This document shows positions 5,751 to 39,254 of a stretch of 39,375 nt of DNA, in pieces. The first letter of the stretch is position 1, and every line of letters starts with the position of its first letter. Origin of the DNA: an uncultured Nitrospinaceae bacterium. GTDB lineage: Bacteria > Nitrospinota > Nitrospinia > Nitrospinales > VA-1. Under the pieces are notes generated by a model. The model was given only the letters and a program-made list of their open reading frames with translations. It made no database searches and had not been told where the DNA came from. The translations under genes were made by a program, and so were the position numbers. The DNA is taken from the NCBI GenBank assembly GCA_938073925.1, contig CALJGH010000125.1, positions 1 through 39,375 of the forward strand, written 5' to 3'.

Positions 5751-5779
5751 ACTCTATAATGGATTTTCCAGCTTGTCAA
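5751..5779 (-). promoter_or_regulatory. sigma-70-type promoter candidate for the 5692..4667 gene pair
   Basis: On the - strand: TTGACA (5779-5774), a 17-nt spacer, then TAGAGT (5756-5751). This sits ~58 nt upstream of the ATG at 5692. Confidence 0.35.
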
Positions 5780-5856
5780 CGCGATTATTTTTCCTGTCAA
5801 TAAATCTATATAAAACAAGTGATTAAGGTATTTTTTAAGGAAGAAAATTCTTCCTT

Positions 5857-6666: not shown

Positions 6667-6670
6667 TACC

Positions 6671-7594: not shown

Positions 7595-8084
7595 ATATTA
7601 GCATAAGACAAAAGAGGGTTTAGAACATTGCATGGAACTTCACCAAAATTTAAATTTGCCAAACGCTTATTAGAAAGAGAAAACAAAATTATTGTGTTCC
7701 ATCTAATTTTTAAGCCTTGCCTCCTTGCTTTATGCAGCGATATATTTTAATGGGATTGAAACCAAGACCGGTCCTAGGAACTCCTTCAAAGTCGTTTTCG
7801 TATCTTCTCAGCTGCAAAAAGGAAATCTTCTAAAAAAATACCATTACCAAGTCGAAGCTTTCAATAAAACATTTGACCAAAAACTGGACTATCTTGAGGT
7901 CCATTTCCATTTGTCAACTTACCACAACAAGCTAGGCAACAATATTAAGGCTGACCAGCACCTAAAAATATGGAATTCTAGAAACATTAAAAAGTCACCT
8001 TAACTCCTATTTCAAAAAAATTCCTATTACCTAGCTTGACTGATATATAATAAACTTTCGCCTTAAACCTATTCACACATATCA

Positions 8085-9911: not shown

Positions 9912-9920
9912 AAAGTTTTA

Positions 9921-21664: not shown

Positions 21665-21669
21665 ACATT

Positions 21670-22521
21670 ATGAATTCGACAGCCGAAAAAACTAAAAAAA
21701 CCGAAGCCATTTCAACACCCCCAAAATTTTTAATTGGCGTTCGCATCAGCAACCAAGCCAAATCGCAACTCTACGACCCAAAAGAATTAAAACTGCGTGT
21801 GGGAATGACAGTAATGGTCAATTCGAACCAAGGGCTCAAGATGGGCCTTGTGGCTTCCAACAAAATCATTAATTTTCGCAAAGACAAAAACGAAAGCTTT
21901 TATAAAGTTCTTCGCGTTGCAAACGAAAATGACTTTGAAGCTGAAAATCGTCGGCTGAGTGTCGAACAAAAAGCCAAAACTTTATGCTCCGAAAAGATCA
22001 TCGAGCTAAAACTGCCGATGAGCTTGAGTCGGATTGTTCACCAGCCGCATATGAATAAAACCATTTTCTTTTTCACCGCAGAAGGAAGGGTAGACTTTCG
22101 CCAACTCATTCGCGACCTTGCATCCAACCTGCGGCACCGCATCGAAATGAAACAGGTCGGAGTAAGAGATGAAGCAAAGGTCATAGGCGGATTTGGAATA
22201 TGCGGCGAAACATTATGTTGCTCTTCGTGGTTACCTGATTTTACTCCCGTCACCATAAAAATGGCAAAGAACCAGGGACTGGCATTGAACCCAAGTAAAA
22301 TTTCCGGTGTGTGCGGCAGACTGATGTGTTGCCTCCAATACGAACATGACAATTATAAAGAAATGGTTAAAGGCATGCCAAGAGTCAATAGCCAGGTGCA
22401 AACTCCAGATGGTCCCGGCAAAGTTTTAAAAAATGAAATTCTCGCCCAGAGAGTTATGGTTCGCCTCGACGATGAAAGCATTAATACCTACCCCAAAGAA
22501 GAACTGAAAGTTAAACAGTAA
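21670..22521 (+). CDS. PSP1 domain protein (RicT/YaaT-like)
   Basis: The ATG at 21670 lies 5 nt after the holB stop; the ORF-track start at 21649 would overlap holB. It has the PSP1 C-terminal Cys-rich signature GGFGICGETLCCSSWL ... CGRLMCCLQYE. Confidence 0.88.
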   Translation: MNSTAEKTKKTEAISTPPKFLIGVRISNQAKSQLYDPKELKLRVGMTVMVNSNQGLKMGLVASNKIINFRKDKNESFYKVLRVANENDFEAENRRLSVEQKAKTLCSEKIIELKLPMSLSRIVHQPHMNKTIFFFTAEGRVDFRQLIRDLASNLRHRIEMKQVGVRDEAKVIGGFGICGETLCCSSWLPDFTPVTIKMAKNQGLALNPSKISGVCGRLMCCLQYEHDNYKEMVKGMPRVNSQVQTPDGPGKVLKNEILAQRVMVRLDDESINTYPKEELKVKQ

Positions 22522-22554
22522 AATCCAAAACCCTGAAACTCGAAAAACTGGAAA

Positions 22555-24471
22555 ATGAAAAATTTTTACATCACCACCCCTATTTATTATGTGAACGATA
22601 TTCCACATATCGGGCATGCATACACAACCATAGCTGCAGATGTCGCCGCTCGCTTTAAAAGACTAGAAGGATATAAAGTTTTCTTCCTGACGGGAACCGA
22701 TGAGCACGGACAAAAAGTCCAGCAAGCCGCAAAAGACCTGAATGTAACGCCGCAGCAGCACGTCGACAAACTTCATCAACGGTTTAAAGAGTTATGGGTG
22801 AAGCTTAATATTTCCAACAGCGATTTCATCCGCACAACAGAAGAACGTCATAAGCGACTGGTATGCGACATTCTGCAAACACTGCATGAGAAAGATGAAA
22901 TTTATCGCGACAGCTACGAAGGCTGGTATTGCACCCCCTGCGAAAGATTCTGGACAGAAAAGGATTTACAGGAAGGCAATTGTCCTGACTGCCAACGTAA
23001 AGTAGAAAAAATAAAAGAATATAATTATTTTTTTCGCATGGGGAAATATCAGGATTGGCTTATTGAAAAAATAAAAAGCGACCCGCATTTCATACTGCCT
23101 GCTTCACGGCGGAATGAAGTTTTGGGCTTCCTGGAAAAGCCACTGGAAGACCTTTGCATCTCGCGTCCAAAATCACGACTTCCTTGGGGCATCCCCCTTC
23201 CCTTCGATGAAGAATATGTCACCTACGTTTGGTTCGATGCCCTAATAAATTATATTTCCGTCCACGGTTCGCTTGATGATATACGTGCCAGTGGCTATTG
23301 GCCTTCAGACCACAACATGGTTGGAAAAGATATCCTGACCACGCACGCGGTTTACTGGTCAACTATGCTGAAGGCTATTGGACTGGAGCCCCCAAAAAAT
23401 ATTTTTGCCCATGGATGGTGGACCGTGAACGGACAGAAAATGTCCAAGTCCCTGCACAATGTCGTCGAACCAAACCAACTCGCAGACCAGTTTGGAGTTG
23501 ATGTGATCCGTTACTTTCTTTTAAGAGAAGTTCCGTTTGGACTTGATGGTGATTTTTCTCATAAGGCTTTGATCGGGCGACTCAATAGTGACTTGGCGAA
23601 CAACCTGGGCAATCTACTCAATCGTTCCGTGAATATGATGAAGAAATATTTCAACGGCACCATCCCGGAACCTGCGACAAAAGGTGAAGAAGACATAGCA
23701 CTGAAAAAAAAAGCACAAGAAGTGATTGATGAAGTGCGTAAACTTTACGACGAACTTGCCTTCAATAAAATTCTACAAAAAATCTGGGAGTTGGTAGACA
23801 CTACCAACCAATACATTGACAAAACCGGCCCCTGGAATCTCGCCAAAACAGATGAAGGCAAAGAACGACTGAAAACCGTTATGTATAATGCCGCAGAATC
23901 TTTACGCATTCTGGGAGTTCTACTCTTTCCCTTCATGCCAAAAAGCTGCGAATCGTTGATGCAGCAACTGGGAGTTGAAAAAAAAATAGAAGAACAAGCA
24001 ATGGCCTCGCTCGATAACTGGGGCGGCTTAACATCGGGAACACAAACACAAAAGGCCAAACAACTTTTCCCGCGAATCGAAGACAAGCAAGCCGCAAAAA
24101 TTCTCGAAGAGTTAGATGCTCCAAAAGAAACTGCAAAAGACGATACAGGGCAAATCACGATTGATGAGTTTATGAAAGTCGACCTACGCACCGGAAAAAT
24201 TCTTGAAGCGGAGAAAGTAAAAAAATCCAGAAAACTGGTTAAACTCAAAGTGGATATCGGCACTGAAACTCGACAGATTCTCGCAGGCATCGCAGAAAGT
24301 TTTGAACCGGAAGACCTAATCGGGCGCACCGTGATTATCGTAGCCAATCTCAAACCAGCAAAGCTGATGGGGATCGAGTCACAAGGCATGGTGTTAGCCG
24401 CCAACAACGATGGCTCTCTCCTAATAGCAGGATTCGACCAAGAACCCGGATTGGGAATACAAGTACGATGA
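22555..24471 (+). CDS. metG: methionine--tRNA ligase with C-terminal Trbp111/EMAP-type tRNA-binding domain
   Basis: 638 aa. Motifs seen: HIGH-type PHIGHAYT, KMSKS, and the zinc knuckle CTPC ... CPDC. The C-terminal segment is KVDLRTGKILEAEKV ... GMVLAA. Confidence 0.97.
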   Translation: MKNFYITTPIYYVNDIPHIGHAYTTIAADVAARFKRLEGYKVFFLTGTDEHGQKVQQAAKDLNVTPQQHVDKLHQRFKELWVKLNISNSDFIRTTEERHKRLVCDILQTLHEKDEIYRDSYEGWYCTPCERFWTEKDLQEGNCPDCQRKVEKIKEYNYFFRMGKYQDWLIEKIKSDPHFILPASRRNEVLGFLEKPLEDLCISRPKSRLPWGIPLPFDEEYVTYVWFDALINYISVHGSLDDIRASGYWPSDHNMVGKDILTTHAVYWSTMLKAIGLEPPKNIFAHGWWTVNGQKMSKSLHNVVEPNQLADQFGVDVIRYFLLREVPFGLDGDFSHKALIGRLNSDLANNLGNLLNRSVNMMKKYFNGTIPEPATKGEEDIALKKKAQEVIDEVRKLYDELAFNKILQKIWELVDTTNQYIDKTGPWNLAKTDEGKERLKTVMYNAAESLRILGVLLFPFMPKSCESLMQQLGVEKKIEEQAMASLDNWGGLTSGTQTQKAKQLFPRIEDKQAAKILEELDAPKETAKDDTGQITIDEFMKVDLRTGKILEAEKVKKSRKLVKLKVDIGTETRQILAGIAESFEPEDLIGRTVIIVANLKPAKLMGIESQGMVLAANNDGSLLIAGFDQEPGLGIQVR

Positions 24472-25859
24472 TTATAGACACACACGCGCATATCGATGTG
24501 GCCGATTACGAAGAAGACCGCGAAGCTGTAATAGAACGCGCCCGCGAAGCCGGAGTGCAATACATGCTGAATATTGGTTGCGATATCGAAAGCAGCTATC
24601 GGTCTATGGAACTTGCCGAACAATACGATTTCATTTACGCGACTGCAGGCATCCATCCGCATGAAGTGAAATCCATTGATGAAGATACTTACACCCACCT
24701 ACGGCAATTGCTGGCTCATCCAAAGGTCGTGGCTCTTGGAGAAATAGGTCTCGATTATTTTAAAAACTATTCTCCTCAGGATTTACAACGCACGCATTTT
24801 CGCAATCAAGTGCAACTAGCGCGTGACATGAACAAGCCCATTGTTATCCACAGTCGGGATGCGAAGGAAGACATCATTTCGATTTTGTCAGAGTTTTATC
24901 CCAAAGACCCAACCGCACATTCTGGGATATTCCATTGTTTTTCAGGGGACCAGGAACTGGCAGACGCCGCGTTGGAGATGGGATTCTATATTTCCTTTTC
25001 CGGTTCAGTTACATTTAAAAAAGCAGAAGATCTGCGCGAAGTGGCGAAAAATGTTCCTGCAGATCGTTTATTCGCAGAAACCGATTGCCCTTATCTAACA
25101 CCTGTTCCACATCGAGGCAAGCGTAACGAACCGGCTTATGTAAATTTCACTGCTGAAAAACTTGCAGAAATCCGCGGATTAAAAATTGAAGATGTGGAAC
25201 GCACCATGGCACTGAACTTTTTCGAACTGTTTGGCATTGGCGCGCAAGCAAAAACGGGAACTGTTTCGTATAAGATTCGCAACTCACTTTATCTCAACCT
25301 GACACAACGTTGTACCGCTGATTGTGTGTTCTGCACCCGGCTGACTAAACCTGTTGTCCAAGGCTACAATTTGGCATTAGACCGGGAACCCACAGCGACT
25401 GAAGTTTGGGAATCGATTGACGATGTAAAAAAATACGATGAGGTTGTTTTTTGCGGATTTGGTGAGCCCACTCTCAGGCTGGATGTCATCAAAGAAGTCG
25501 CTAAAAAAGTCAAAGACAATGGCGGCCGCGTGAGGCTCAACACCAACGGTCATGGAAACGTAATCAACAAACGCAATATCCTGCCAGAGTTATCGGGTCT
25601 GATCGATGAAGTTTCGGTGAGTCTCAATGCCGACTCTTCGGAAGCCTACGATCAAATTTGTCAGCCCCTGCCAAAATTCCGCAATGGCATTTATGAAAAA
25701 ATTAAAGAATTCATTGAAGAGGCCAAAAAATACATCCCCGATGTACAAGCTTCTATTGTCACCCACCAAAACGGGGTCGATGAATCGAACTGCGAAGAAA
25801 TCGTAAATAAAGAATTTGGAGTAAAATACCGGGCACGCAGGTACAACATCGTCGGCTAG
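24468..25859 (+). CDS. TatD-family metal-dependent hydrolase fused to a radical SAM domain
   Basis: An ATGA overlap with the metG stop. Residues 1-~256 are TatD (IDTHAHID, GEIGLDY, VIHSRDA, FHCFSG, ETDCPYL). A short linker is followed by an rSAM core with CTADCVFC (CxxxCxxC, nt 25311-25334). The frame is continuous for 463 aa. Confidence 0.85.
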   Translation: MIIDTHAHIDVADYEEDREAVIERAREAGVQYMLNIGCDIESSYRSMELAEQYDFIYATAGIHPHEVKSIDEDTYTHLRQLLAHPKVVALGEIGLDYFKNYSPQDLQRTHFRNQVQLARDMNKPIVIHSRDAKEDIISILSEFYPKDPTAHSGIFHCFSGDQELADAALEMGFYISFSGSVTFKKAEDLREVAKNVPADRLFAETDCPYLTPVPHRGKRNEPAYVNFTAEKLAEIRGLKIEDVERTMALNFFELFGIGAQAKTGTVSYKIRNSLYLNLTQRCTADCVFCTRLTKPVVQGYNLALDREPTATEVWESIDDVKKYDEVVFCGFGEPTLRLDVIKEVAKKVKDNGGRVRLNTNGHGNVINKRNILPELSGLIDEVSVSLNADSSEAYDQICQPLPKFRNGIYEKIKEFIEEAKKYIPDVQASIVTHQNGVDESNCEEIVNKEFGVKYRARRYNIVG

Positions 25860-26673: not shown

Positions 26674-27666
26674 TTATGGTAGATCTGGGAAAATAACCTC
26701 GATGGGTTCTCCATCAAGAGCTATTAGAAATTCAACTAGGTCTTTTTTCTCCTGCGCGGTCAACCCAAGAGGTGTGATAAAAGGGCTCAGGTTTTCTTTT
26801 ATATCCCCTCCCCGATCATAAAACTCTATCACATCTTTCAATGTAGCTTCTGTTCCATTATGCATATAAGGAGCAGACTGGGTAATACTGCGTAAACCCG
26901 GGGTTTTAAAAGCACCTTTGTCAAAATCGGATTTACTTTCATTATATCGACCCAAGTCAACCTTCAAAGGTCCTGCCGCCTTAACCCCAATATTATGAAA
27001 ACCACTATCGGTAAAAACCGGACCGTTGTGACAAATAGCACACTTGGCCTTCCCAAAAAACAGGTTCATGCCTTTCACCGCCGATGTAGACATAGCGGAT
27101 TTGTCGCCAGCCCAATATTTATCATAGGGGGCATTTTTTGAAACAACCGATCTTTCATAAGTTGCAATGGCCTTGGCAATGTTATCGATAGTCATGGAGT
27201 TTGTTCCAAATACAGAGGTGAATCGTTTGACATAACCCGGTAGAGCTTTTAGCTCGCGAATTAATTCATCAAAGTTCTGATTCATTTCACCTGTAGCTTC
27301 AATAGGACCTTTCGCCTGATCTTCCAGAGATTTTTTTCTTCCATCCCACATCTGGACTTCAAAATATCCACTGTTTATAACGGTGGGAGCATGGCGACCC
27401 AATTCCTTCTGACCATCCCCAATAGTGCGAGGAAGTCCATCCCCCCAACCCAATCCGGGGTTATGGCAGGTGGCGCAACTTATCCAATTGCTCCCCGACA
27501 ATCGCGGATCAAAATACAGCATCTTCCCCAACGCTTCTTTTTCTTTAGACCATTTATTGTCTGCCGGATGTTTCATTTCCGGGACTCGTTCGTAAACAGA
27601 CTCTTCTGCCCATGCAGTTGAAAATGAAACCATCCCAACCAAAACCGCAATAATCAGCTGTCGCAT
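26674..27666 (-). CDS. di-haem cytochrome c peroxidase (CCP/MauG family), periplasmic
   Basis: Two CxxCH haem sites (CATCH, CAICH). The signal peptide is MRQLIIAVLVGMVSFSTAWA. I prefer the ATG at 27666, which follows TAAGGAAG by 6 nt, over the TTG at 27693 used by the ORF track. Confidence 0.9.
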   Translation of the reverse strand: MRQLIIAVLVGMVSFSTAWAEESVYERVPEMKHPADNKWSKEKEALGKMLYFDPRLSGSNWISCATCHNPGLGWGDGLPRTIGDGQKELGRHAPTVINSGYFEVQMWDGRKKSLEDQAKGPIEATGEMNQNFDELIRELKALPGYVKRFTSVFGTNSMTIDNIAKAIATYERSVVSKNAPYDKYWAGDKSAMSTSAVKGMNLFFGKAKCAICHNGPVFTDSGFHNIGVKAAGPLKVDLGRYNESKSDFDKGAFKTPGLRSITQSAPYMHNGTEATLKDVIEFYDRGGDIKENLSPFITPLGLTAQEKKDLVEFLIALDGEPIEVIFPDLP

Positions 27667-27683
27667 AAACGTCTTCCTTACTT

Positions 27684-28145
27684 TTAGTGGCAATTTTCCA
27701 ATCCTCTTTTTGCTAGATACTGTTGATGATAGTCTTCAGCAATATAATATTTTGACTCGGCGGTGATTTCCGTAACGATAGGATTTGGAAATCGTCCTGA
27801 ATTTTGTTCTTTAGATTTTATCGCAGCCGCTTCCTGAGCCGGATCAGCAAAGAAAATTACAGACCGATACTGTGTGCCTCTATCTGGCCCCTGTCTATTT
27901 AATGTCGTCGGGTCGTGACACCCCCAAAAAACATCAAGCAATTCTTCATAAGAAACAGAAGAAGGGTCGAACTCAACCCAAACTACTTCTGCGTGGTTGG
28001 TTTTTCCCGTACATACTTGTTCATAGGTCGGATTATCTGTAGCCCCTCCTGTGTAGCCGACAGAAGTGGAAGTAACCCCTTTCACTTTACCGAAGGCGAC
28101 TTCGATACCCCAGAAACATCCTGCCCCGAAAATTGCGGTTGCCAT
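27684..28145 (-). CDS. msrA: peptide-methionine (S)-S-oxide reductase
   Basis: 153 aa with the active site GAGCFWG and a strong RBS AGGAGGAAG upstream. No signal peptide is visible. Confidence 0.95.
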   Translation of the reverse strand: MATAIFGAGCFWGIEVAFGKVKGVTSTSVGYTGGATDNPTYEQVCTGKTNHAEVVWVEFDPSSVSYEELLDVFWGCHDPTTLNRQGPDRGTQYRSVIFFADPAQEAAAIKSKEQNSGRFPNPIVTEITAESKYYIAEDYHQQYLAKRGLENCH

Positions 28146-28156
28146 ACTTCCTCCTA

Positions 28157-28435
28157 TTAGCTTCGGCTGGTGATCTCAATAAGATGGTATCCGAATTGAG
28201 TTTTAACCGGACCATGAACTTTTCCCACATCATCATTAAACACGACTGTATCAAACTCAGGAACCATTTGACCGGGACTGAATTCTCCCAAACCTCCGCC
28301 GTCATTTCCAGATGGACATTCTGAATGCTGTTTCGCCATATCGGCAAAATCTGCACCCCCTTCAATCTTACTTTTTAAATCTATACAGGCTTCTTCGGTT
28401 TTGACAAGAATATGTCGAGCACTTGCTTTAGGCAT
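28157..28435 (-). CDS. ppiC: parvulin-type peptidyl-prolyl cis-trans isomerase (PpiC-like, single domain)
   Basis: 92 aa. It aligns along its full length with my recollection of E. coli PpiC: ARHILV ... GADFA ... CPSG ... GG.LGEF ..GQMVPEFD ... TQFGYHLI. Confidence 0.9.
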   Translation of the reverse strand: MPKASARHILVKTEEACIDLKSKIEGGADFADMAKQHSECPSGNDGGGLGEFSPGQMVPEFDTVVFNDDVGKVHGPVKTQFGYHLIEITSRS

Positions 28436-29261
28436 TGGTATTTCCTTTGTTATTAAGTGGTGAATTATAAAATCTAAAATAGAACCCCATCCATATCAAC
28501 CCCATTACCACCAGGGCTGTAAAATGCGGAAAATACTTATCAGAATACCAGGAAGGAGAAAACTGCATGACTCCTTTTATCTCTCCCGAATAATGCTTTA
28601 GCATCTCCCCATATTCTACTATCAGCCGAACGGGAAAACGATCTTCATCCAAATCGCCCCCGCGTTTTACTGTTACGTCAAAGTTTTTCTTCTCATTGCT
28701 TCTTAGCGTGAACCCCATCATTCCATTAAACTTTTCCGCAACCATACCCGGTGGCAACAGCAACATCATTCTGACATTTTTTAATGAGTCCGAATGATTT
28801 TGAATCATGATCTTTAAATTAGATGATGCTGGCCCACCAGAAGATTGAATACTACCCCCGATTTGCGATTTGACAGGTTCTTCAAAGTAAAACGAATCTG
28901 TATGTAAAATCGTTTTACTTTCTCCTCCCTCAAAAAGCGTTTTATATCTTACCTTCGCGGAAATAGGATATGTGCCAACCCGAAGAACCGGAGGGTGCTT
29001 GTCATTCTCCAGGGTAATACTCTGCCCTGGACCAAGCTCTCGAATTGCAGTCATCATGGACATCGAGTGGTGAAAATGAAACATCGGCTGAATATGAAAA
29101 AGAGGTTTTGAGCCTGTATTTTTCATCGTCAAGGCCAAACCCACCTGACCATTTTGGTCCACATCACTATTAATGATAACCTGCAAAGGTTGCCCCAGCA
29201 ACGAATTGGGGAAAACAACAAATAAAATCAACACAAATAGATGGCACATATAAATTCCCAT
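28428..29261 (-). CDS. exported beta-sandwich protein with C-terminal membrane anchor and His/Met-rich motif (hypothetical)
   Basis: 277 aa. It has an N-terminal signal-like segment and two CARDB/DUF11-like repeats (LALTMKNTGSKPL ... LGPGQSITL; LKIMIQNHSDSLKNV ... FTLRSNEKKNFDV). The motif HIQPMFHFHHSMSMM is at nt 29052-29096 and a C-terminal TM helix is present. Its stop overlaps the ppiC start by 8 nt. Confidence 0.65.
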   Translation of the reverse strand: MGIYMCHLFVLILFVVFPNSLLGQPLQVIINSDVDQNGQVGLALTMKNTGSKPLFHIQPMFHFHHSMSMMTAIRELGPGQSITLENDKHPPVLRVGTYPISAKVRYKTLFEGGESKTILHTDSFYFEEPVKSQIGGSIQSSGGPASSNLKIMIQNHSDSLKNVRMMLLLPPGMVAEKFNGMMGFTLRSNEKKNFDVTVKRGGDLDEDRFPVRLIVEYGEMLKHYSGEIKGVMQFSPSWYSDKYFPHFTALVVMGLIWMGFYFRFYNSPLNNKGNTNA

Positions 29262-29402: not shown

Positions 29403-30146
29403 ATGGATACTCTACTGACTATTTTTATATTACTAGGTCTGTTGTTGTTCAGCACATTCCGGGTATTGAGGGAATATGAACGAGGTGTTGTATTTCTGTT
29501 GGGAAGGTTCTGGAAAGTAAAGGGCCCCGGTATCGTTATTGTTTTTCCCGGAATACAGAAAATGGTCAAGGTTAGCTTGCGAACCGTGGTGATGGATGTT
29601 CCCCCACAAGACATCATCACGAAAGACAACGTAACCGTAAAGGTCAATGCGGTAATCTATTTTCGCGTCGTAGACTCGCAAAAAGCGATCATTGAAGTAG
29701 AGGACTTTTTATACGCCACCTCTCAGCTTGCGCAGACTACATTGCGAAGCATATTAGGACAAAGCACCCTGGACGATCTCTTGTCCAATCGCGAAGAGAT
29801 CAACGCTCACCTACAAAAGGTCATTGATGAACAAACCGAGCCTTGGGGTGTCAAGGTCGCAAACGTTGAAGTTAAAAACGTTGACCTGCCACAGGAAATG
29901 CAAAGAGCATTAGCAAAACAGGCGGAAGCAGAACGCGAGCGACGCGCAAAAGTTATCAATGCCCAGGGCGAGTTCGAAGCGGCTCAGAAAACCTGTGATG
30001 CGGCAGACTTGATTGGCAGCCACCCGCCCGCTTTGCAACTACGATTTTTCCAGACTTTGTTGGATCTCTCAAATAATGAGGGCAACCATACTTATATCCC
30101 TATTCCACTGGAGTTATTTGATTCCTTTAAAAATAAAAGAGAATAA
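29403..30146 (+). CDS. SPFH/band-7 (stomatin/slipin-like) membrane protein
   Basis: 247 aa. It has an N-terminal TM helix and the motif [16 protein letters not shown], then a band-7 core and a coiled coil [15 protein letters not shown] strong RBS AGGAGAA lies upstream. No NfeD gene is adjacent. Confidence 0.92.
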
Positions 30147-30206
30147 ATCATGATACCGTTTTATTATTTTTAGTCCCATCACAATAATATTTTCTCCCGT
30201 ATTTTC

Positions 30207-33200
30207 ATGGAAGCTTACTCTCAAATAAATCAGTTCCTGATTCGCGTCCAAAAAAGCTGCAATCGAATTCGGCTTATATTAGGAACCTATCTGTTTTTTG
30301 CCGCCCTTCTAGGAACTCTATTGTGCGTGGCACTGTTTTATTACCTACAACCCTCGTCAATCAGCTATTACGCATCCGCCCTGCTTTTTTTGATTTTAGG
30401 GAAGTATCTCTACTCCACGGTGCGTTCTAGTTCTTTAAAAAAAATCGATCGAGAGGGTGCAGCCTTACTTATAGAAAAGAAATACCCTGAACTAAATAAT
30501 TCACTCATAAATTCTGCGCAATTGGGTGACATTGTTTCCGACCCTGCCAGAGAGAAACTTTTCTCTTCCGCTTTTATTCACGAGTTAATAGCCCGAACCC
30601 AGAACCACATAACTAAACTAAATGCCGACTCGGTTATTGAAAAAAGCCGGACAACACATTCGAGAAATTTATTTCTAAGCACTTTGGCGATTGGCTTGGT
30701 CGTCACTTTCATCGTTCCTGACTTCTGGCAACAAGCACTCAAAAACAGCAATCCTTCAGCTGGCAACCCGTCAACAGTGACGGCAGAAAAAAACATTTCA
30801 AGCCCCGACTTAGCAGAACCCGTTTACAGCATTCATGATCTCGCGCTGATATTGAACTATCCCGCTTACACACGCTTGTCAGCAAAAAGGGTTAACCCTT
30901 CTGATGGTTCCGTAAAAGCATTGCCTGGAACTGAAGTCCTGATTAAAGGTAAAATCAATCAAGCTGTTCAAGCCGCCAGTCTTGTCATTAACGAGAAAGA
31001 CTCCTTCCTCATGGAATCAAAAAAGGACTCCACTCTATCGGGGTCTTTTATGGTTCGCGAAAAAGGCTTCTACCAATTCAGAGTTAAAGGGCCGTCAGGA
31101 ACCCGAACCGTGTTGCCGCAAAAATTTCCCATCAAGCTCGATAAAGATAAAAAGCCGCGCATCCTTTTATTTCCTGCCAATCCGAAGCCGGTTTACTTTG
31201 ACACCGATAAAATCCAGATATTTTATGAAGGAAGCGATGATTTTGGCATCCGTAGCATAGAGTTAGTCGCGCTGATTGACGACAGCACAACTCGAAAAAG
31301 TATTAAAAACTTAAAAAACGGAGAAAAAGCATCCCAGGGAAGATTTACTTGGAACCTGGCTCTTGAATCCTTAAAGCCTGGACAAGAAATTCAATATTAT
31401 CTGGAAATAAAGGACAACGATAATGTTTTTGGCCCCAACAAAAACCAGTCCGAAATAATTAGCTTTACCATTTTTGACACGAGCAAGGAGCAGGAAAACC
31501 TTGTCCGCCTTCAGGATGAATTGACAGAAAAAATGATCGCCCTGTTAGCAACCGGATTGGTAGAAGACAATATTCTAAAGACAACCACGAAGGATGCTCT
31601 TTACGGAAAAAAACTACTCGCCTCGAATGCCGATGCTCTGATTGATATTATTGGCCTCGCGCAGCATATAAAAAATCAGGCAGAAGAGCTTGGCAATTTC
31701 CCACAAGCTTACCTGACATTATTAAATAATATCATTTCGGGATTAAAAACAATCCGTCAGGAAAAAATTGACGCGATCGATAAAATTCAAGGAACAATAA
31801 TGAAACCCACCCCGGTGGACTACAATTTATTCTCTATCGAAGTTTTAAATGATCGCATGGTCACACATTTAGAGCGCGATATTCTTTACCTGATAAAAAT
31901 CACCAATCGCCAAAAAATGGATAGGGTAATGGATCTGGAAGATCAGCTATTAGAACTAACCGAGACTCTACAGGAGGAATTTGAAAATCTGAAAAACAAA
32001 AAGTCCCCTTTGAACTCGAACCAGCTCAAATCCAAACTCGACCAGATACAGCAAACATTAAAACAACTCATGGAGAAGTTGGCACAGCAAAACCAATCGA
32101 TGCCCGATGAATTCCTAAATTCCAAGTCCTACAAAAGCATGAATATGGAAGAAATGATGGCGTCGGTTGAAAAAATTCAAGACCTCGCGAATCAAGGGAA
32201 AATGGATGAAGCCATGGAGCAACTTAAAAAAATGGCTGAAGAGTTAAGAAAATTTGCTGAGCAATTAAATCAAGCTGAATCTTCGATGGAAGAAATGGTG
32301 GACACAGAAATGATGGAACAACTCAACGAGTCCACGCAAGAATTAAAAGACATGGAAAAGAAACAACGCGAGATCATTAAAAAAACTTCAGAAATAAACC
32401 AGGAACTGCGACAGAAGCAGTCCAAAAAATTTGAGTCTTTGGTTAAAAAGTTTTTTGAAGAACTCAAAAGAGATGTGGAGTCCATTCGTTCCATTCTTGA
32501 TGACGATAAAAACTACCTTAATGAGCATTCAGCCATGAAAAAGCTTAGCAAGCTCCTTGAAAAAGAATCCGCTCTAAATCAGGAAATACAATCGCTGGGG
32601 CAAGAGACCATAGACTCCAGCCTTAAAGATAGTCTCGCGAAGAACTTTGCAGAGTTGAAGGACCGCCAACGACAACTTTCTAGCACATTATCTGAGATGA
32701 ACTCTCTCAGAGCAATGGGGCTCCAGGAGTTCAAGGAGAAACTTCCAGAGCTACAGAAAAAATACGATTCTTTGAAAGAACTTGCCGAGTTAAATGAATT
32801 GAACGAATTTAATTTACTTTTCAAAAGCACTTATCCGGAAGTATTCCGCTGGCAAGGCAATATACAAGCATCACGGAACGAAAATATCACCGGAAAAATA
32901 AGCGATGATTTGAAGAAGGTGACCCGGTTGAACGGAGAGATATCCAAGAAACTCGGCTCATTGAAACGTTCGACCGAAGCCAGCAACGACTCGCTCCTTT
33001 CCAAAGAAGAGAAGAGCAAACTACAGAAAATGGCAGAGCAGGAAAAATCTATGCGAGGAAAAACGGAAGGAATGCAAAAACAGTTTTCTAAAATGAATCA
33101 GAAAAACCCATTACTCCCGCCCTCCCTCGCTCAAAATATGCAGATGGCAGGAAAAAACCTGCAACGTGCCGAATCTCGCTTACAAGGGAATCAAGTACAA

Positions 33201-33521
33201 AGGAGCATTGAGTCTGAGAACAAGGCCCTGAAACAAATTCAAGAAGCGCAGAGCATGTTAAGCGAAATGAAAAAATCCGGGTCGCAAATGTCCCAACAGG
33301 GCAAACAACAAAACCAGCTTCGACTTGGAACGGGAAGTCGCAGAGACTCAAGGCGTGGAGGTGCTGTTCGAATGCAGAAGGAAAAAGTTCTCTTGCCTTC
33401 GGACGATCAATACAAAGTACCCAGTGAGTTCCGCGAAGATATTCTCGATGCGATGAAAAAACAGACACCGAAGAACTACGAACAACTGGTCAACGAATAT
33501 TATAGAGAACTCGTGCAATGA
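30207..33521 (+). CDS. large membrane-anchored coiled-coil protein, DUF4175-like
   Basis: 1104 aa. An N-terminal TM hairpin is followed by AALLIEKKYPELNNSLINSAQL and a third TM near aa 155-175. A beta-rich region follows (YPAYTRL ... ALPGTEV ... DDFGIRSIEL ... LKPGQEIQYYLEIKDND). Then come ~550 aa of E/K/Q/M-rich coiled coil and the conserved-looking tail VPSEFREDILDAMKKQTPKNYEQLVNEYYRELVQ. The family call is from memory of the DUF4175 architecture. Confidence 0.7.
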   Translation: MEAYSQINQFLIRVQKSCNRIRLILGTYLFFAALLGTLLCVALFYYLQPSSISYYASALLFLILGKYLYSTVRSSSLKKIDREGAALLIEKKYPELNNSLINSAQLGDIVSDPAREKLFSSAFIHELIARTQNHITKLNADSVIEKSRTTHSRNLFLSTLAIGLVVTFIVPDFWQQALKNSNPSAGNPSTVTAEKNISSPDLAEPVYSIHDLALILNYPAYTRLSAKRVNPSDGSVKALPGTEVLIKGKINQAVQAASLVINEKDSFLMESKKDSTLSGSFMVREKGFYQFRVKGPSGTRTVLPQKFPIKLDKDKKPRILLFPANPKPVYFDTDKIQIFYEGSDDFGIRSIELVALIDDSTTRKSIKNLKNGEKASQGRFTWNLALESLKPGQEIQYYLEIKDNDNVFGPNKNQSEIISFTIFDTSKEQENLVRLQDELTEKMIALLATGLVEDNILKTTTKDALYGKKLLASNADALIDIIGLAQHIKNQAEELGNFPQAYLTLLNNIISGLKTIRQEKIDAIDKIQGTIMKPTPVDYNLFSIEVLNDRMVTHLERDILYLIKITNRQKMDRVMDLEDQLLELTETLQEEFENLKNKKSPLNSNQLKSKLDQIQQTLKQLMEKLAQQNQSMPDEFLNSKSYKSMNMEEMMASVEKIQDLANQGKMDEAMEQLKKMAEELRKFAEQLNQAESSMEEMVDTEMMEQLNESTQELKDMEKKQREIIKKTSEINQELRQKQSKKFESLVKKFFEELKRDVESIRSILDDDKNYLNEHSAMKKLSKLLEKESALNQEIQSLGQETIDSSLKDSLAKNFAELKDRQRQLSSTLSEMNSLRAMGLQEFKEKLPELQKKYDSLKELAELNELNEFNLLFKSTYPEVFRWQGNIQASRNENITGKISDDLKKVTRLNGEISKKLGSLKRSTEASNDSLLSKEEKSKLQKMAEQEKSMRGKTEGMQKQFSKMNQKNPLLPPSLAQNMQMAGKNLQRAESRLQGNQVQRSIESENKALKQIQEAQSMLSEMKKSGSQMSQQGKQQNQLRLGTGSRRDSRRGGAVRMQKEKVLLPSDDQYKVPSEFREDILDAMKKQTPKNYEQLVNEYYRELVQ

Positions 33522-35077
33522 TAAAAAAAGAGAATATTTTTTTTTCGTCCTTGCTTGTGGTACTCGCTCTTTCTATCACCACATCTGCCGCTCCGACATT
33601 CACCGACAAAGTACTCACGGGTTATGAACTCGCTCAAGATTGGGATTTGATTGCCGCCGAAGAACTTTCCAATTCCCTTCTTGAAAACCACCCCGAATCC
33701 GGTGATGCTCATTTTCTCAGCGCACGAATTGAATTTCTAAAAGGAAACTACAATCGTGCATTAGAGATTCTGGAAAGAGTAGGTGATTCCTACGAAGAAG
33801 TTTCCGATTTCAAGAATAGAGTTGAGGCTACCCGCAAGGCCACCCAGAATTTTGTTACCCGAGAAACGGCACATTTCCGCTTTCGTTATAAAGAAGGCCC
33901 CGATGAGGTTCTTCTAACTTACGCAGAGGAAGTACTGGAAAAATCTTACCTAGTGTTAGGGGAAATTTTAGATCATTATCCACAGGAAAAAGTTCTCATT
34001 GAATTTTACCCTGACAGACAACCATTTTCTAAAATTTCTCCACTGACCTTGCAAGACATCCTCACATCTGGAACCGTCGCGCTGTGTAAATACAATCGTA
34101 TTATGATGATTTCGCCAGGGTCACTGGTTCGTGGATTCAACTGGATGGATACTCTAAGCCATGAATACGTTCATTATCTACTTACAAAGAAAAGCCGCAA
34201 TCAGCTTCCACTGTGGACGCATGAAGGAATCGCAAAATTACTGGAAACAAGATGGCGTAACGACAAAAAATACTTATCTCCCATTATGGAAACCATTCTT
34301 TCTGGCGCGCTCAAAAATGATTACAGAATCGCATTGGAAGATATGATGCCGTCGCTTGCCAAACTGAAAACCGCCAAAGATGTTCAACTTGCTTACGCAG
34401 AAGTGTCAACAATGATGGAGTTCCTCGCAGAATCGAAGGGCATAGAAATTTTCACTCAACTTCTTGAAGATTTGGCCAAAGGTATACGCTTTGAAGAAAG
34501 TTTTCAAAACAGGGCCGGACACGATATTCTTTCCTTTCAGAACAACTGGGAGATATGGGCTAAAAATAAGGAGTTGAAATTTATTCCTGGCATTACCGCT
34601 TTGACCAAAGAATTCAAAAATCAAAACAAACTGGAACCAGAAAAAGATTATAAAGGATTAGGCACAAGGCGGGCGCAGGACCTAACCTTCTTAGGTGATA
34701 TCTTAAAGTCTCGCGATCATTACAACGCCGCCATCCTTGAGTATCAAAAGGCGAAAGAAGAATCTTCTACTCATTCACCAATACTGTTCAACAAACTAGC
34801 TGGCACCTATATTCAAACAGGGAAGTACGATGAAGCAGAGTTGCTTTTAAAAGAAAGCCTAGAGTATTATTCTGACTTTCATACGACACTCGCTAACCTT
34901 GGTGAGCTTTATTTTGTTAGCGAAAGGTTTTACAAAGCACAAAAATATCTCGAAAAAGCGGTTCGCATCAACCCATTCAACCCTTTCATTCACACCAGGT
35001 TGATAGAGTTATACGATCGCATGTCAATGACCGAAGAAAAGAAATTACAAACCCAGCTGTTCAGCTTAATAGATTGA
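33518..35077 (+). CDS. secreted peptidase-MA-like (HExxH) domain protein with flanking TPR repeats
   Basis: An ATGA overlap with the upstream stop. The signal peptide is MIKKENIFFSSLLVVLALSITTSAAP. The motif SHEYVHYLLTKKSRNQLPLWTHEGIAKLLE is HExxH with a downstream (H)EG, as in Peptidase_MA_2. TPR-like helices lie at the N-terminus and in the last ~130 aa. Confidence 0.75.
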   Translation: MIKKENIFFSSLLVVLALSITTSAAPTFTDKVLTGYELAQDWDLIAAEELSNSLLENHPESGDAHFLSARIEFLKGNYNRALEILERVGDSYEEVSDFKNRVEATRKATQNFVTRETAHFRFRYKEGPDEVLLTYAEEVLEKSYLVLGEILDHYPQEKVLIEFYPDRQPFSKISPLTLQDILTSGTVALCKYNRIMMISPGSLVRGFNWMDTLSHEYVHYLLTKKSRNQLPLWTHEGIAKLLETRWRNDKKYLSPIMETILSGALKNDYRIALEDMMPSLAKLKTAKDVQLAYAEVSTMMEFLAESKGIEIFTQLLEDLAKGIRFEESFQNRAGHDILSFQNNWEIWAKNKELKFIPGITALTKEFKNQNKLEPEKDYKGLGTRRAQDLTFLGDILKSRDHYNAAILEYQKAKEESSTHSPILFNKLAGTYIQTGKYDEAELLLKESLEYYSDFHTTLANLGELYFVSERFYKAQKYLEKAVRINPFNPFIHTRLIELYDRMSMTEEKKLQTQLFSLID

Positions 35078-35087
35078 GGTTTTCTGA

Positions 35088-36074
35088 ATGGAAGATTTAG
35101 AACTAGCCCAGGAACTACTAAAGGCCAAAAAAAATGTAGTCAATGAAATACAAAAAGTCATCATCGGCCAAGATGAAGTAATCGAAGACCTTTTGGTTGC
35201 GCTTTTTTCTAAGGGACACTGCCTTTTCGTGGGAGTACCCGGATTAGCGAAAACCCTTCTGGTCAGCACCCTTGCGCAAGTATTAAACCTCGGGTTCAGT
35301 CGAATTCAGTTCACCCCCGACCTCATGCCTTCAGATATAACGGGGACAGATATCTTGCACGAAGATACTACATCGGGGAAGAGAGTGTTCCAGTTCATTA
35401 AAGGTCCAATTTTCTCTAACATAATTTTAGCCGATGAGATCAATCGAACGCCTCCAAAAACCCAGGCGGCTCTATTGCAAGCAATGCAGGAAAAACAAGT
35501 TACAGTAGGGGGAAACACCTATCCACTTACCCCACCCTTTCTGGTTTTTGCTACGCAAAACCCCATTGAGCATGAAGGCACCTATCCGCTGCCAGAAGCA
35601 CAACTCGATAGGTTCATGTTTATGATCAACGTGACCTATCCCAGCAAAAAAGAAGAAATCAAAATCGCACTCTCCACCACTTCAGGTCAATTAACCGAGT
35701 TGCAACCTATCTTGAATGCCGAGCAGGTCTTAAAGTTTCAAGAACTGGTTCCACGAGTCCCTGTTTCCGAACACGTTGCCTCTTATGCTGTGGAACTGGT
35801 GCAAAATACACGACCACAGCAAAATAGTAATGCGCCGGATTTTGTTAAGGAATGGATTGATTGGGGGGCAGGCCCCAGAGCGTCTCAATATCTTATCTTG
35901 GGAGCCAAGGCAAAAGCGTTGATGGACAACCGTGTCGCGACGACAATTGAGGACGTCAAAGCGGTTTCCCGCCAGGTTCTAGAACACCGGATTATATTAA
36001 ACTTCAAAGCCGAAGCAGAGAATATAAAAGTCACCGATGTCATAGAAAAACTCCTGACAACAGTGAAAGCCTAA
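35088..36074 (+). CDS. MoxR-family AAA+ ATPase
   Basis: 328 aa. It has Walker A GVPGLAKT, Walker B and the MoxR signature ILADEINRTPPKTQAALLQAMQE, then FATQNPIEHEGTYPLPEAQLDRF. The RBS GAGG is 8 nt upstream. Confidence 0.95.
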   Translation: MEDLELAQELLKAKKNVVNEIQKVIIGQDEVIEDLLVALFSKGHCLFVGVPGLAKTLLVSTLAQVLNLGFSRIQFTPDLMPSDITGTDILHEDTTSGKRVFQFIKGPIFSNIILADEINRTPPKTQAALLQAMQEKQVTVGGNTYPLTPPFLVFATQNPIEHEGTYPLPEAQLDRFMFMINVTYPSKKEEIKIALSTTSGQLTELQPILNAEQVLKFQELVPRVPVSEHVASYAVELVQNTRPQQNSNAPDFVKEWIDWGAGPRASQYLILGAKAKALMDNRVATTIEDVKAVSRQVLEHRIILNFKAEAENIKVTDVIEKLLTTVKA

Positions 36075-36458
36075 CTACTTATTTTTGTAAAGGCTCCCAA
36101 CGCGGAAACCACCACGGTCCTCCTTATCGATACTCATCTGGCGAGTATCTTCTTCATCGAGTTTGCCTAACGCTTCGGAAACTTCTATCTGATAGTTTTT
36201 GACTTTCTGATACAGGGGATGTTTGATATCCAACTTCAGGTTGGTGAGAGCCGCGGTGAATTCGCCGGTACCATCCGGAGTCAATTTACATACCAGTTCA
36301 CCGGAATTGTCATCGCGGTAAATATCTGTTACTTCCAATGGCGTTTTATTTTTGACTTGAAACCCCATTTCACGCAACAGGGTCAACACCGCTCCACGTC
36401 CATAAACACGAAGTGGCAAACATTTTAGCAATTCATCCATCAAAGATTGTGCGCTCAA
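36075..36458 (-). CDS. hypothetical 127-aa protein
   Basis: A TTG start at 36458 follows GAGGA at 9-nt spacing; an alternative ATG is at 36440. Its stop codon (36075-36077) directly abuts the moxR stop (36072-36074). I recognise no family. Confidence 0.5.
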   Translation of the reverse strand: MSAQSLMDELLKCLPLRVYGRGAVLTLLREMGFQVKNKTPLEVTDIYRDDNSGELVCKLTPDGTGEFTAALTNLKLDIKHPLYQKVKNYQIEVSEALGKLDEEDTRQMSIDKEDRGGFRVGSLYKNK

Positions 36459-36773: not shown

Positions 36774-37538
36774 GTGCCCGTGAATAAATATTTACCAGCG
36801 ATCAATCTATTTTTTGTCCTCACCATCGCTGTTATTACAACATTGTCAGTCAAAATCTGGACACACCCCACTTATCCAACCCGAGTCGATGGGGCATCTG
36901 TGGTGGGATCGCCAAAATCCCTGAATAAATTGACAGTTAGCCGACTTGGAGGCAATGCAGGAACGGTATCTCAGGTGGTGCAAGGGAATATTTTTCGCAG
37001 GCAAAGAAGGGAGTATATTCCCCCTCCAACAGCCCGACCCATTGTACCATCCGTTGCCAGCAAGCCTGCCTTGCCACCGCCGAACCTGGTTTTGAAAGGC
37101 ATTCTGATGCTGGGCGGCACAAAAATTGCTATCTTAGAGGGTAATTACTGGACTTTTCAAGGAAACCAAAAGGTGAAAAAGAAAGTTAAGAAAAGGGGCT
37201 ATTCTTTGGGACAAATTGTAGGGGATTTTGAGTTGACCGAAATAGATAAAACCAGTGTCACCCTAAATGATAAAAATGGGCGTGGGGTTCGATTGCGTTT
37301 GGCTAAACGCTCTCCCGAAAAAATCATTCATAGAGAGGGGACTGTTTTTTTTCAAAAAAATAAAAAGTATGATCCGAGAAAATTCAAAGCCACTCCTGTC
37401 AAGAATCGCCCGACAAGAACCACTACGGCACAACCAAAAGCCAAGCCAACTGCACTTGCCCCGGCTCCAGCCCCTGTGTTCAGGATTTCGGGAGCAAAAA
37501 CACCTGCACCTGCTGCCGTTCATATTTCAGGAAGATAA
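36774..37538 (+). CDS. bitopic inner-membrane protein, GspC/PilP-like (putative secretion-system accessory protein)
   Basis: A GTG start lies 6 nt after GAGGG. An N-terminal TM helix is present. A small beta domain (LVLKGILMLGGTKIAILEGN ... YSLGQIVGDFELTEIDKTSVTL) resembles the GspC HR / PilP fold pattern. The tail is basic and Pro/Ala-rich, with no PDZ domain. It sits immediately upstream of the GspE/PilB gene. Confidence 0.4.
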   Translation: MPVNKYLPAINLFFVLTIAVITTLSVKIWTHPTYPTRVDGASVVGSPKSLNKLTVSRLGGNAGTVSQVVQGNIFRRQRREYIPPPTARPIVPSVASKPALPPPNLVLKGILMLGGTKIAILEGNYWTFQGNQKVKKKVKKRGYSLGQIVGDFELTEIDKTSVTLNDKNGRGVRLRLAKRSPEKIIHREGTVFFQKNKKYDPRKFKATPVKNRPTRTTTAQPKAKPTALAPAPAPVFRISGAKTPAPAAVHISGR

Positions 37539-37544
37539 ATTGTC

Positions 37545-39254
37545 ATGTTGAAAAAAGTTGATCCAGTTGAGCGAATTTTACTCCGCCATAAAAAGATTTC
37601 AGAAAAGGTTTTGCAGGAAGTCAAAACCAACAACCTGCATTCCCATAACTTTTTAGGAAAAACTTTGGTTGACCATGGTTATATCCATACCCAAACGTTA
37701 CTGGAAACCCTAGGTGCCGAGTTACGCTTGCCGTATATCAAAAAAGATCAATTTCCAAAGTCTGGCTTGCCTGTCGAGGGCCTGTCGATATCAGATACTT
37801 TTTTAAGAGAGAAAGTTATCCTTCCATTGCAACTCAAGGACGACACCTTGATCATTGCCGTTTTCGATCCATTCGACCAATACACGATTGAAGATTTAAA
37901 AGTTTCTCTTGGGAAAAACATCCGAGTTGTCTTAAGCGGCGAGCAGGATATTTTGGAATCTATCGAAGCGCACTATGGCGAAGGAGGCAGTTCGGCCATG
38001 GATCGCATGGTCGACAACATCAACGATGAAGATCTACATGGCTTAGATTCGCTTGATGAGAGCACGGAACATATTCGCGACATGGCTTCCGAGGCTCCTG
38101 TCATTAAACTGGTGAATCACATCATCAGTGAAGCGATTGAGTCGCGTGCCAGTGACATCCATTTGGAACCTTTTGATGACGAGCTTCTTTTAAGATATAG
38201 GATTGATGGCATTCTTCACGAATTTGATCATCCACCAAAACGCCTGAGTTCTGCAATCACGACCCGTATAAAAATTATGGCAAAGATGGATATTTCCGAA
38301 CGCCGACTACCTCAGGATGGGAGAATTAAACTAAAAATTCTGGGCAAAGATATCGACATGCGTGTTTCCACTCTGCCGACTTTATACGGTGAAAGTGTGG
38401 TCATGAGGATACTCGATCGCGGAAGCCTAGTACTGGACCTCAGCCAAATGGGGTTTCCCGAAAAGATACTCAGTCAACTCGAAGAGTTGATTCGTAAACC
38501 CTATGGCAAAATGCTGGTAACCGGTCCCACAGGTAGCGGCAAAACTACCACGCTTTATGCCGCCCTGAGCCAGATCAACACACCTGACAAAAAAATAATC
38601 ACCATTGAAGACCCCGTGGAATATCAAATGCGCGGGATCAACCAGATCCATGTAAAATCGCAGATCGGTCTAAACTTCGCTGGCGGGTTACGATCCATAG
38701 TGAGGCAGGATCCAGATGTGATCATGGTTGGTGAGATTCGTGACCCTGAAACAGCTGATATTTCGATTCAGGCCGCTCTGACAGGGCATCTTGTTTTTAG
38801 CACCGTTCACACCAACGATGCAGCAGGTGCAATCACGAGACTCCTCGATATGGGAATCGAAAATTTCCTAATTTCATCGGCACTATTAGGTGTGCTCGCT
38901 CAAAGACTGGTGCGCGTCATTTGCCCGGATTGCAAAGAAGAAACTACATTAACCCCAATCCTTCGTACAGAGATGGGGCAGTTGGGAAAAGAAGATATCA
39001 AAGTTTATCGTGGTAAAGGCTGTAAAGCCTGCAGTAACACAGGATTTCGAGGCAGATGTGGAATTTATGAACTGCTGGTTATTGATGATAATATTCGAGA
39101 ACTCGTATTAAAAAAATCAACCGCGCAAACTATCTGCGATCAAGCACGACAAACCGGCATGAGAACCTTGAGAGAAGACGGCTGGGACAAAGTGATAAAA
39201 GGCATCACTACCGTTGAAGAAATTCTCCGCGTCACCTTGAGTGATCGAAACTAG
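37545..39254 (+). CDS. type II secretion / type IV pilus assembly ATPase (GspE/PilB family)
   Basis: 569 aa. It has an N-terminal T2SSE_N-type domain, Walker A GPTGSGKTT, Walker B DPDVIMVGEIRD, the His box TGHLVFSTVHTN, and the tetracysteine motif CPDC ... CKAC. Confidence 0.95.
   Translation: MLKKVDPVERILLRHKKISEKVLQEVKTNNLHSHNFLGKTLVDHGYIHTQTLLETLGAELRLPYIKKDQFPKSGLPVEGLSISDTFLREKVILPLQLKDDTLIIAVFDPFDQYTIEDLKVSLGKNIRVVLSGEQDILESIEAHYGEGGSSAMDRMVDNINDEDLHGLDSLDESTEHIRDMASEAPVIKLVNHIISEAIESRASDIHLEPFDDELLLRYRIDGILHEFDHPPKRLSSAITTRIKIMAKMDISERRLPQDGRIKLKILGKDIDMRVSTLPTLYGESVVMRILDRGSLVLDLSQMGFPEKILSQLEELIRKPYGKMLVTGPTGSGKTTTLYAALSQINTPDKKIITIEDPVEYQMRGINQIHVKSQIGLNFAGGLRSIVRQDPDVIMVGEIRDPETADISIQAALTGHLVFSTVHTNDAAGAITRLLDMGIENFLISSALLGVLAQRLVRVICPDCKEETTLTPILRTEMGQLGKEDIKVYRGKGCKACSNTGFRGRCGIYELLVIDDNIRELVLKKSTAQTICDQARQTGMRTLREDGWDKVIKGITTVEEILRVTLSDRN

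Follow-up and report, generated by a model that had tools for sequence, protein, structure and literature searches.

The window analysed here, a 39,375-nucleotide (nt) stretch of DNA from an uncultured Nitrospinaceae bacterium (contig CALJGH010000125.1), carries at 30207-36074 a trio of genes for a DUF4175-family membrane protein, a secreted peptidase/TPR protein and a MoxR-type AAA+ ATPase. We propose, with moderate confidence, that this trio is the version that Nitrospinota carry of a Bat-like MoxR envelope system, one that is widespread and still uncharacterised. Comparison of gene orders across phyla shows that the conserved core of the system is a usually overlapping gene pair, predicted to encode the DUF4175-family membrane protein and a Sec-exported HExxH (zinc metallopeptidase)-TPR protein. 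The same comparison, based on predicted proteins, shows moxR attached to the core pair in Nitrospinota and in some delta-type lineages, with the fullest operons adding DUF58, BatA/VWA, DUF4159 and GATase1-like genes. Judged by its encoded families, the window trio probably corresponds to the 5' part of a canonical Bat-like MoxR/DUF58/VWA cluster, because in six loci such a trio adjoins DUF58 and BatA/VWA genes; by itself, the window has only the moxR, TPR-protein and large-membrane-protein genes of the Bat-like set.

To place the trio, we scanned one genome per GTDB species, called open reading frames (ORFs) at the 68 loci recovered and searched these with the window proteins. Within Nitrospinota, the DUF4175-like and peptidase/TPR genes share a 4-nt overlap in 16 of the 16 loci with enough sequence, and moxR follows the pair in all 16, usually after 10 nt (15 loci have gaps between -4 and 63 nt, the sixteenth one of 835 nt). 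Because this gene order recurs in every one of the 16 loci, the trio arrangement is not due to chance. Outside Nitrospinota, the pair is adjacent in 29 of the 40 loci with at least 2 kb of downstream sequence, mostly from Brocadiales (anammox bacteria) and other Planctomycetota, and also from several 'Deltaproteobacteria' metagenome-assembled genomes (MAGs) and one Myxococcia MAG. The 4-nt overlap of the pair is seen in many lineages, and in five further non-Nitrospinota loci the peptidase gene lies 1.3-7.9 kb away. MoxR directly follows the pair in at least eight non-Nitrospinota loci (L004, L029, L037, L044, L050, L075, L077 and L078). The Brocadiales pair stands alone among genes for an acyltransferase, a TPR protein, CutA1, ClpX and heptose biosynthesis, with no MoxR within 10 kb.

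The trio runs directly into DUF58 and BatA/VWA genes in L037, L044, L050, L075, L077 and L078, forming clusters of five to seven genes. In L037 and L050 it is followed by DUF58 (161-172 bits) and then by a BatA_N/VWA protein of 720-730 amino acids (aa); in L037, DUF4159 and a GATase1_like protein of 770 aa come next, and L044 has the same four genes after the trio. The order is trio-DUF58-BatA/VWA in L075 and L077, and L078 has all seven genes. A link between DUF4175 proteins and MoxR-DUF58 clusters, mentioned in an earlier sequence-only reading of this DNA, is borne out by contiguous clusters in related loci.

Elsewhere the same set is divided between loci. The Brocadiales assembly Bin_313 (JAUQZZ01) has its DUF4175 gene on contig 93 (L020) and a MoxR-DUF58-BatA/VWA locus on contig 61 (L071), and L072, L073 and L079 are three-gene loci like L071. 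In the delta MAG CSMAG_2661 (JAUWWP01), contig 96 carries the DUF4175-peptidase pair (L003) and contig 25 a MoxR-less DUF58-VWA-DUF4159-GATase1_like locus (L076). L004, its 77%-identical relative with a complete chromosome, has the trio alone, followed by a convergent DUF362 gene. This trio-only arrangement is that of Nitrospinota, and a close relative carries DUF58-VWA-DUF4159-GATase1_like elsewhere in its assembly.

Several of the compared loci have features of their own. The unusual 835-nt gap before moxR belongs to L066 (QJZQ01000094.1, titled 'Nitrospirae bacterium SZUA-350'), which has the Nitrospinota gene order and whose DUF4175, peptidase and MoxR proteins give Nitrospinota-like scores of 542, 622 and 554 bits; the bin or contig has probably been mislabelled. 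In six Brocadiales loci (L005, L007, L008, L027, L035 and L039), a conserved block of genes for biosynthesis of heptose of the lipopolysaccharide core (for an HldE-like PfkB plus cytidylyltransferase protein, a GmhA-like SIS protein and a GmhB-like HAD protein) lies ~3-6.4 kb upstream of the pair, together with a response regulator gene; this proximity may be plain synteny. The DUF4175-family gene of L078 (2-2706) is called as two overlapping ORFs of 512 and 408 aa, which suggests a frameshift or an assembly error. On two unrelated contigs, an extracytoplasmic function (ECF) sigma factor gene lies divergently just upstream of the DUF4175-peptidase-MoxR-DUF58-BatA cluster (L075, 2560-3788; L077, 2947-3612), beside a zf-HC2 anti-sigma protein in L075, and hints at envelope-stress regulation of the system.

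The encoded proteins and a proposed mechanism

Profile hidden Markov model searches uphold the domain assignments of the sequence-only reading for the trio and for the SPFH gene upstream of it (Band_7, DUF4175, Peptidase_MA_2 with TPR, and AAA_3), with all four proteins above the Pfam cut-offs and DUF4175 marginally so; an NCBIfam scan of the four gave nothing specific beyond Pfam. The DUF4175-family protein (protein 2) matches PF13779 at 30.5 bits against a cut-off of 27.3, a score that sums weak stretches of which none is significant alone. We built a profile from 19 Nitrospinota sequences of protein 2 and searched it against 1.84 billion cluster representatives, obtaining 758 at E<1e-30. 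The majority have lengths of 1000-1150 aa and matches that span the N-terminus to about position 770 or to the end. When the Pfam model was run on nine full-length relatives (E ~1e-90 to 1e-136), eight scored 51-98 bits and one fell under the cut-off. Because eight of the nine tested relatives score in this range, protein 2, although itself barely above the cut-off, is by sequence a divergent DUF4175 member that its relatives bridge to the Pfam model. Among the best 120 homologues of protein 2, and likewise of the peptidase/TPR protein (protein 3), those with a named source were all from Nitrospinota (Nitrospinales, Nitrospinaceae, Nitrospina and Nitromaritima) and none from another phylum, with identities down to 46% for protein 2 and 54% for protein 3; other phyla were reached through the profile search of cluster representatives and the genome scan.

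Protein 2 has three transmembrane (TM) helices, and its translation is rich in lysine and arginine, by residue counts, at the N-terminus and in the TM2-TM3 loop. This pattern indicates an N-in topology, with the C-terminal 930 residues predicted to be periplasmic. Conserved across phyla are the cytoplasmic loop of ~80 aa (residues 72-150), the beta-sandwich motifs GDxxLxYxYPxYTG, DDFGL and LEAxDND, and a C-terminal tail, YKVPxEFRxDILxAMK...YYxxLV, which reads YKVPSEFREDILDAMK...EYYRELVQ in the window. In an AlphaFold2 model (mean predicted local distance difference test score, pLDDT, 74), the three TM helices are followed by two beta-sandwich domains (~209-423); helical bundles occupy residues 425-1036, and after a disordered linker (1037-1072) the chain ends in a pair of helices. 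Foldseek searches with this model returned only generic immunoglobulin-like and macroglobulin (MG)-like beta-sandwiches, and we found no solved structure related to protein 2 by sequence.

Protein 3 matches Peptidase_MA_2 at 41.1 bits (cut-off 32.4) and several TPR families besides, with TPR at ~28-108, Peptidase_MA_2 at ~100-355 and TPR again at ~384-518. Its translation has a cleavable-looking signal peptide and a HEYVH...HEG motif, and residues H215, E216, H219 and E236 are invariant in 48 of 48 full-length orthologues from several phyla. Because this H-E-x-x-H...E zinc site is invariant in the 48 orthologues, the enzyme is probably active. An AlphaFold2 model reached a pLDDT of 84; Foldseek with the full model, a search that the TPR part dominated, returned TPR proteins only, and no solved relatives of the isolated peptidase domain were found by sequence.

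The MoxR protein matches AAA_3 at 207.5 bits (cut-off 27) and AAA_lid_2 at 53.7 bits, and its translation keeps Walker A (GVPGLAKT) and Walker B (ILADEINR) intact. It is 57-67% identical to the MoxRs of the compared loci, those linked to DUF58-BatA/VWA included (L004 is closest), and 63-65% identical to the DUF58-adjacent MoxRs of L037, L044, L071 and L072; since MoxRs are so conserved and the comparison has no outgroup, these values mark it by sequence as an ordinary MRP-type (AAA_3) MoxR and no further. The locations that had been predicted for these proteins and the tight operon structure of genes two to four are supported.

We propose that the DUF4175-family protein would serve as an inner-membrane scaffold, with its conserved ~80-aa loop in the cytoplasm and its very large beta-sandwich and helical-bundle domain in the periplasm. 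The peptidase would dock on this scaffold in the periplasm, perhaps with its TPR domain binding the conserved C-terminal tail that extends from the DUF4175 protein on a linker, and once docked could cleave envelope or periplasmic proteins. From inside, a cytoplasmic MoxR hexamer may assemble or gate the DUF4175-peptidase complex, most likely through DUF58/VWA adaptors, which in Nitrospinota would be encoded at another locus, by analogy with the contiguous operons. An envelope-maintenance role of the system is suggested only by analogy with the Rhizobium leguminosarum MoxR RL3499 and with the Bat operons (see below).

Two further readings build on the same proteins. Should Nitrospinota lack DUF58 and VWA altogether, the MoxR hexamer might act directly on the DUF4175 loop to control the periplasmic zinc peptidase, a VWA-independent coupling that would have arisen by reduction of a Bat-like operon; we regard this as unlikely. 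The cross-phylum pair of DUF4175 and Peptidase_MA_2/TPR proteins may also represent an unrecognised envelope protease system common to nitrite oxidisers and anammox bacteria.

Alternative explanations

The sequence-only reading had proposed a self-contained machine of four genes (SPFH, DUF4175-like, peptidase and MoxR), in which the AAA+ ATPase is coupled to the peptidase through membrane proteins rather than through a VWA/MIDAS partner. The four genes are indeed co-oriented with short gaps, and the highly conserved cytoplasmic loop of the DUF4175 protein could be a direct docking site for MoxR. DUF58 and VWA are likewise absent locally, as that reading had noted: Pfam finds no match to DUF58, VWA, BatA or NfeD in the ORFs of at least 100 aa that were scanned in the 39-kb window, which leaves out the ATP-synthase stretch at ~13.5-18.4 kb. 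Against this explanation stand the six loci in which the trio is contiguous with DUF58 and BatA/VWA, the resemblance of the window MoxR, an ordinary AAA_3 protein, to DUF58-linked MoxRs, and the delta MAG which has a trio-only relative and holds DUF58-VWA-DUF4159-GATase1_like elsewhere in its assembly. Where the set is split (L020/L071 and L003/L076), the missing half is found elsewhere in the assembly, which speaks against a distinct VWA-free machine and comes near to one of the outcomes that the sequence-only reading had named as refuting it. The SPFH gene does not hold its place either. The DUF4175-peptidase-MoxR part of the proposed order recurs in all 16 Nitrospinota loci, but the Band_7 gene, co-oriented upstream of the trio, is present beside it in Nitrospinota only. 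Its distance from the protein 2 gene varies there from ~46 to 175 nt while the trio gaps stay at -4 and ~10 nt; in L002 an opposite-strand RND efflux operon of 6.6 kb separates the two, with Band_7 keeping its divergent 277-aa neighbour apart from the trio; and L064 lacks Band_7, so that the 277-aa gene there is the immediate upstream neighbour of the DUF4175-like gene. Because of this variable spacing, displacement and absence, the tight unit is one of three genes and not four. The SPFH gene, which may or may not be co-transcribed with the trio, is best seen as a lineage-specific neighbour outside the conserved system. We therefore hold the four-gene machine to be improbable; we class the system with the known Bat-like MoxR/DUF58/VWA operons and not as a categorically new machine.

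It could also be that the DUF4175-peptidase pair works autonomously in the periplasm and that MoxR, with DUF58/VWA, is a separate system nearby, the two having unrelated functions. The Brocadiales loci, where the pair sits among unrelated housekeeping genes with MoxR more than 10 kb off or absent, would fit this, as would the finding that MoxR does not follow the pair in 22 of the 27 non-Nitrospinota loci with enough sequence. We nonetheless give it as little weight as the four-gene machine, since the near-constant short gaps to MoxR in Nitrospinota (15 of 16 loci) and the linkage in at least eight loci of other lineages, with the pair always immediately 5' of moxR in extended clusters, amount to a repeated tight linkage across distant lineages that would be hard to explain other than by a functional connection. 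A MoxR-vWA type biological-conflict (anti-phage) system has a very small probability and was rejected. MoxR-vWA ternary conflict systems are described in the literature and the window MoxR has a weak match to Pfam bpMoxR (41 bits), but AAA_3 scores far higher at 207 bits and PADLOC gave no meaningful match (DolB, at 20 bits, being the sole one). The window has no effector, vWA-L, VMAP, iSTAND or beta-propeller components, and throughout the phylum the locus is chromosomal and syntenic, with housekeeping genes around it.

Returning to the Bat-like reading, several observations weigh against it. Eleven of the 40 non-Nitrospinota loci have no adjacent peptidase gene, and the identity values leave orthology between the window MoxR and the compared MoxRs unproven. 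Foldseek gave no specific match for protein 2 or protein 3, and the contacts between peptidase and scaffold and between MoxR and loop are ones that we infer, both structure predictions being of single chains. In none of the 16 Nitrospinota loci is DUF58 or VWA found within 10 kb of the module. Nor is there a Nitrospinota-named protein among the best 120 DUF58 profile matches, which end at 339 bits and are mostly nameless; Brocadiales DUF58 matches, at ~346 bits, stand just above that end. Two of these DUF58 matches that look low in G+C by amino-acid composition were examined and belong to other lineages (one to a full cluster, one to a MoxR-DUF58-BatA locus). On balance, we think it fairly probable that Nitrospinota encode the DUF58/VWA partners at another locus and rather doubtful that they have truly lost them, with a minor share left for the absence of any functional link between MoxR and the pair.

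Locus layout and neighbouring genes

The ORF list confirms the four ORFs and the spacings given in the sequence-only reading (60 nt, a 4-nt ATGA overlap and 10 nt), as well as the convergent, zero-spaced ORF after moxR. Features of the module and its immediate flanks are collected in Table 1. A promoter and terminator scan was uninformative, with counts no higher than in shuffled sequence; it placed no terminator among the four genes.

Table 1. Genes of the module and its immediate flanks in the 39,375-nt window
Feature	Position	Strand	Basis
Signal-peptide protein, 277 aa, divergent from the Band_7 gene	28428-29261	-	ORF list; no Pfam match
Stomatin-like SPFH/Band_7 membrane protein, 247 aa	29403-30146	+	ORF list, Pfam
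DUF4175-family predicted inner-membrane protein, 1104 aa	30207-33521	+	ORF list, Pfam
Peptidase_MA_2 + TPR protein, predicted secreted, gluzincin-like, 519 aa	33518-35077	+	ORF list, Pfam
MoxR-type AAA+ ATPase, 328 aa	35088-36074	+	ORF list, Pfam
Small ORF, 127 aa, convergent with moxR at zero spacing	36075-36458	-	ORF list

The Band_7 protein matches its Pfam family at 133.7 bits (cut-off 23.6) and has a hydrophobic N-terminus as membrane anchor. Pfam found no NfeD in the neighbouring window ORFs. The divergent 277-aa protein combines a signal peptide and a beta-rich body with a TM helix at the C-terminus; its gene is paired with Band_7 across Nitrospinota, and it may be the real SPFH partner in place of NfeD. 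Adjoining this pair at 26674-28435 (- strand) is a periplasmic oxidative-damage and folding run of a di-haem cytochrome c peroxidase, MsrA and a small PPIC-type peptidyl-prolyl isomerase (PPIase), which is kept in many Nitrospinota loci (families F12 and F13) and is missing, along with Band_7, in L064.

On the other side, the 127-aa ORF has no Pfam, NCBIfam or PADLOC match, and it is probably a real small gene because its position is conserved in nine Nitrospinota loci (family F15). Beyond it, the block at 36774-39254 (+) contains the gene for a GspE ATPase of the type II secretion/type IV pilus-like kind (677 bits) and, ahead of this gene, an ORF of 254 aa that matches GspC_delta weakly; several Nitrospinota loci have the block downstream of the module (families F21 and F22). 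The wider neighbourhood is housekeeping in character, with genes for lipoamide-dehydrogenase-like, DnaJ-like, UbiD, UvrA and ATP synthase proteins, holB, metG, a TatD-radical SAM protein, the cytochrome c peroxidase, msrA, the PPIase and GspE. The TatD-radical SAM protein, a 463-aa ORF at 24468-25859 (+), fuses a TatD-type DNase/hydrolase domain (305 bits) to a radical SAM domain (62 bits), a fusion also called in L001 and L002. Two further sets of window ORFs were considered as MoxR-DUF58-VWA genes and rejected: those at 20651-25859 (337, 290, 638 and 463 aa), taken as a second operon of this type, are holB, a PSP1 protein gene, metG and the TatD-radical SAM gene, and those at 3446-12734, of compatible size, encode a DnaJ-like protein, ABC permeases, UbiD and UvrA.

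Relation to known systems

MoxR/DUF58/VWA (Bat-like) operons are, to our knowledge, among the most widespread bacterial clusters still without a known mechanism. Our comparison indicates that in a large branch of these systems the most conserved element is the pair of DUF4175 scaffold and periplasmic zinc metallopeptidase, and the invariant peptidase site allows a concrete biochemical activity, periplasmic proteolysis, to be proposed for the system. The operon is modular and breaks differently by phylum, between the pair and MoxR-DUF58-VWA in anammox bacteria and between the trio and DUF58-VWA-DUF4159-GATase1_like in the delta lineage; such breakpoints can be used to infer interacting parts. 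Organisms with the system include anammox bacteria as well as marine nitrite oxidisers of ecological importance. A full-text search of one library for DUF4175 returned four papers, none of them on this system, and a search for Nitrospina together with MoxR or von Willebrand found nothing relevant. Because the DUF4175 literature found treats other subjects, the cross-phylum pairing of DUF4175 with Peptidase_MA_2/TPR and its attachment to MoxR clusters appear to be undescribed within the library searched.

As in SPFH-NfeD and HflK/C-FtsH arrangements, the stomatin-like Band_7 gene of the window adjoins genes for a membrane-associated protease. Unlike SPFH-NfeD, no NfeD was found in the window, and because the adjacency of Band_7 to the trio is confined to Nitrospinota and broken in two lineages, a functional pairing of SPFH with the trio is unsupported. 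The trio shares with RavA-ViaA and other MoxR-VWA pairs a MoxR that presumably serves a dedicated client complex as a chaperone for its assembly or remodelling, but its MoxR is of the AAA_3/MRP type and not RavA, no VWA gene is adjacent, and the client is predicted to be transmembrane and periplasmic. Relative to other Pfam DUF4175 (PF13779) proteins, the N-terminal TM region and the beta-sandwich region match the model, whereas the subfamily of the window protein carries a conserved C-terminal tail peculiar to it, and its peptidase/TPR partner gene looks obligate.

The 'broadly conserved' RL3499-RL3502 operon of Rhizobium leguminosarum likewise joins an MRP-type MoxR to membrane proteins. Besides MoxR it encodes a DUF58 protein and a pair of membrane proteins, one possibly of the DUF4175 type, and it is not known to include a peptidase/TPR partner. 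Its mutation reportedly leads to defects in envelope integrity and cell morphology. Its MoxR, RL3499, was reportedly found important for membrane integrity and cell morphology in work from 2011 (Vanderlinde et al.).

The Bat operons and the window locus both have a MoxR AAA+ ATPase, an exported TPR protein and a large membrane-anchored beta-sandwich protein, and the extended relatives of the window locus have DUF58 and BatA_N/VWA in the same operon. Bat (Bacteroides aerotolerance) operons have the order moxR-DUF58-batA-batB-batC(TPR)-batD-batE and occur also in Borrelia and Leptospira. The window locus differs in having, instead of BatD, a DUF4175-family protein whose helical domain in the periplasm spans a predicted ~600 aa; in a TPR protein that carries a conserved and, by sequence, apparently active Peptidase_MA_2 domain; and in placing the DUF4175 and peptidase genes 5' of moxR, in a window without DUF58 or VWA.

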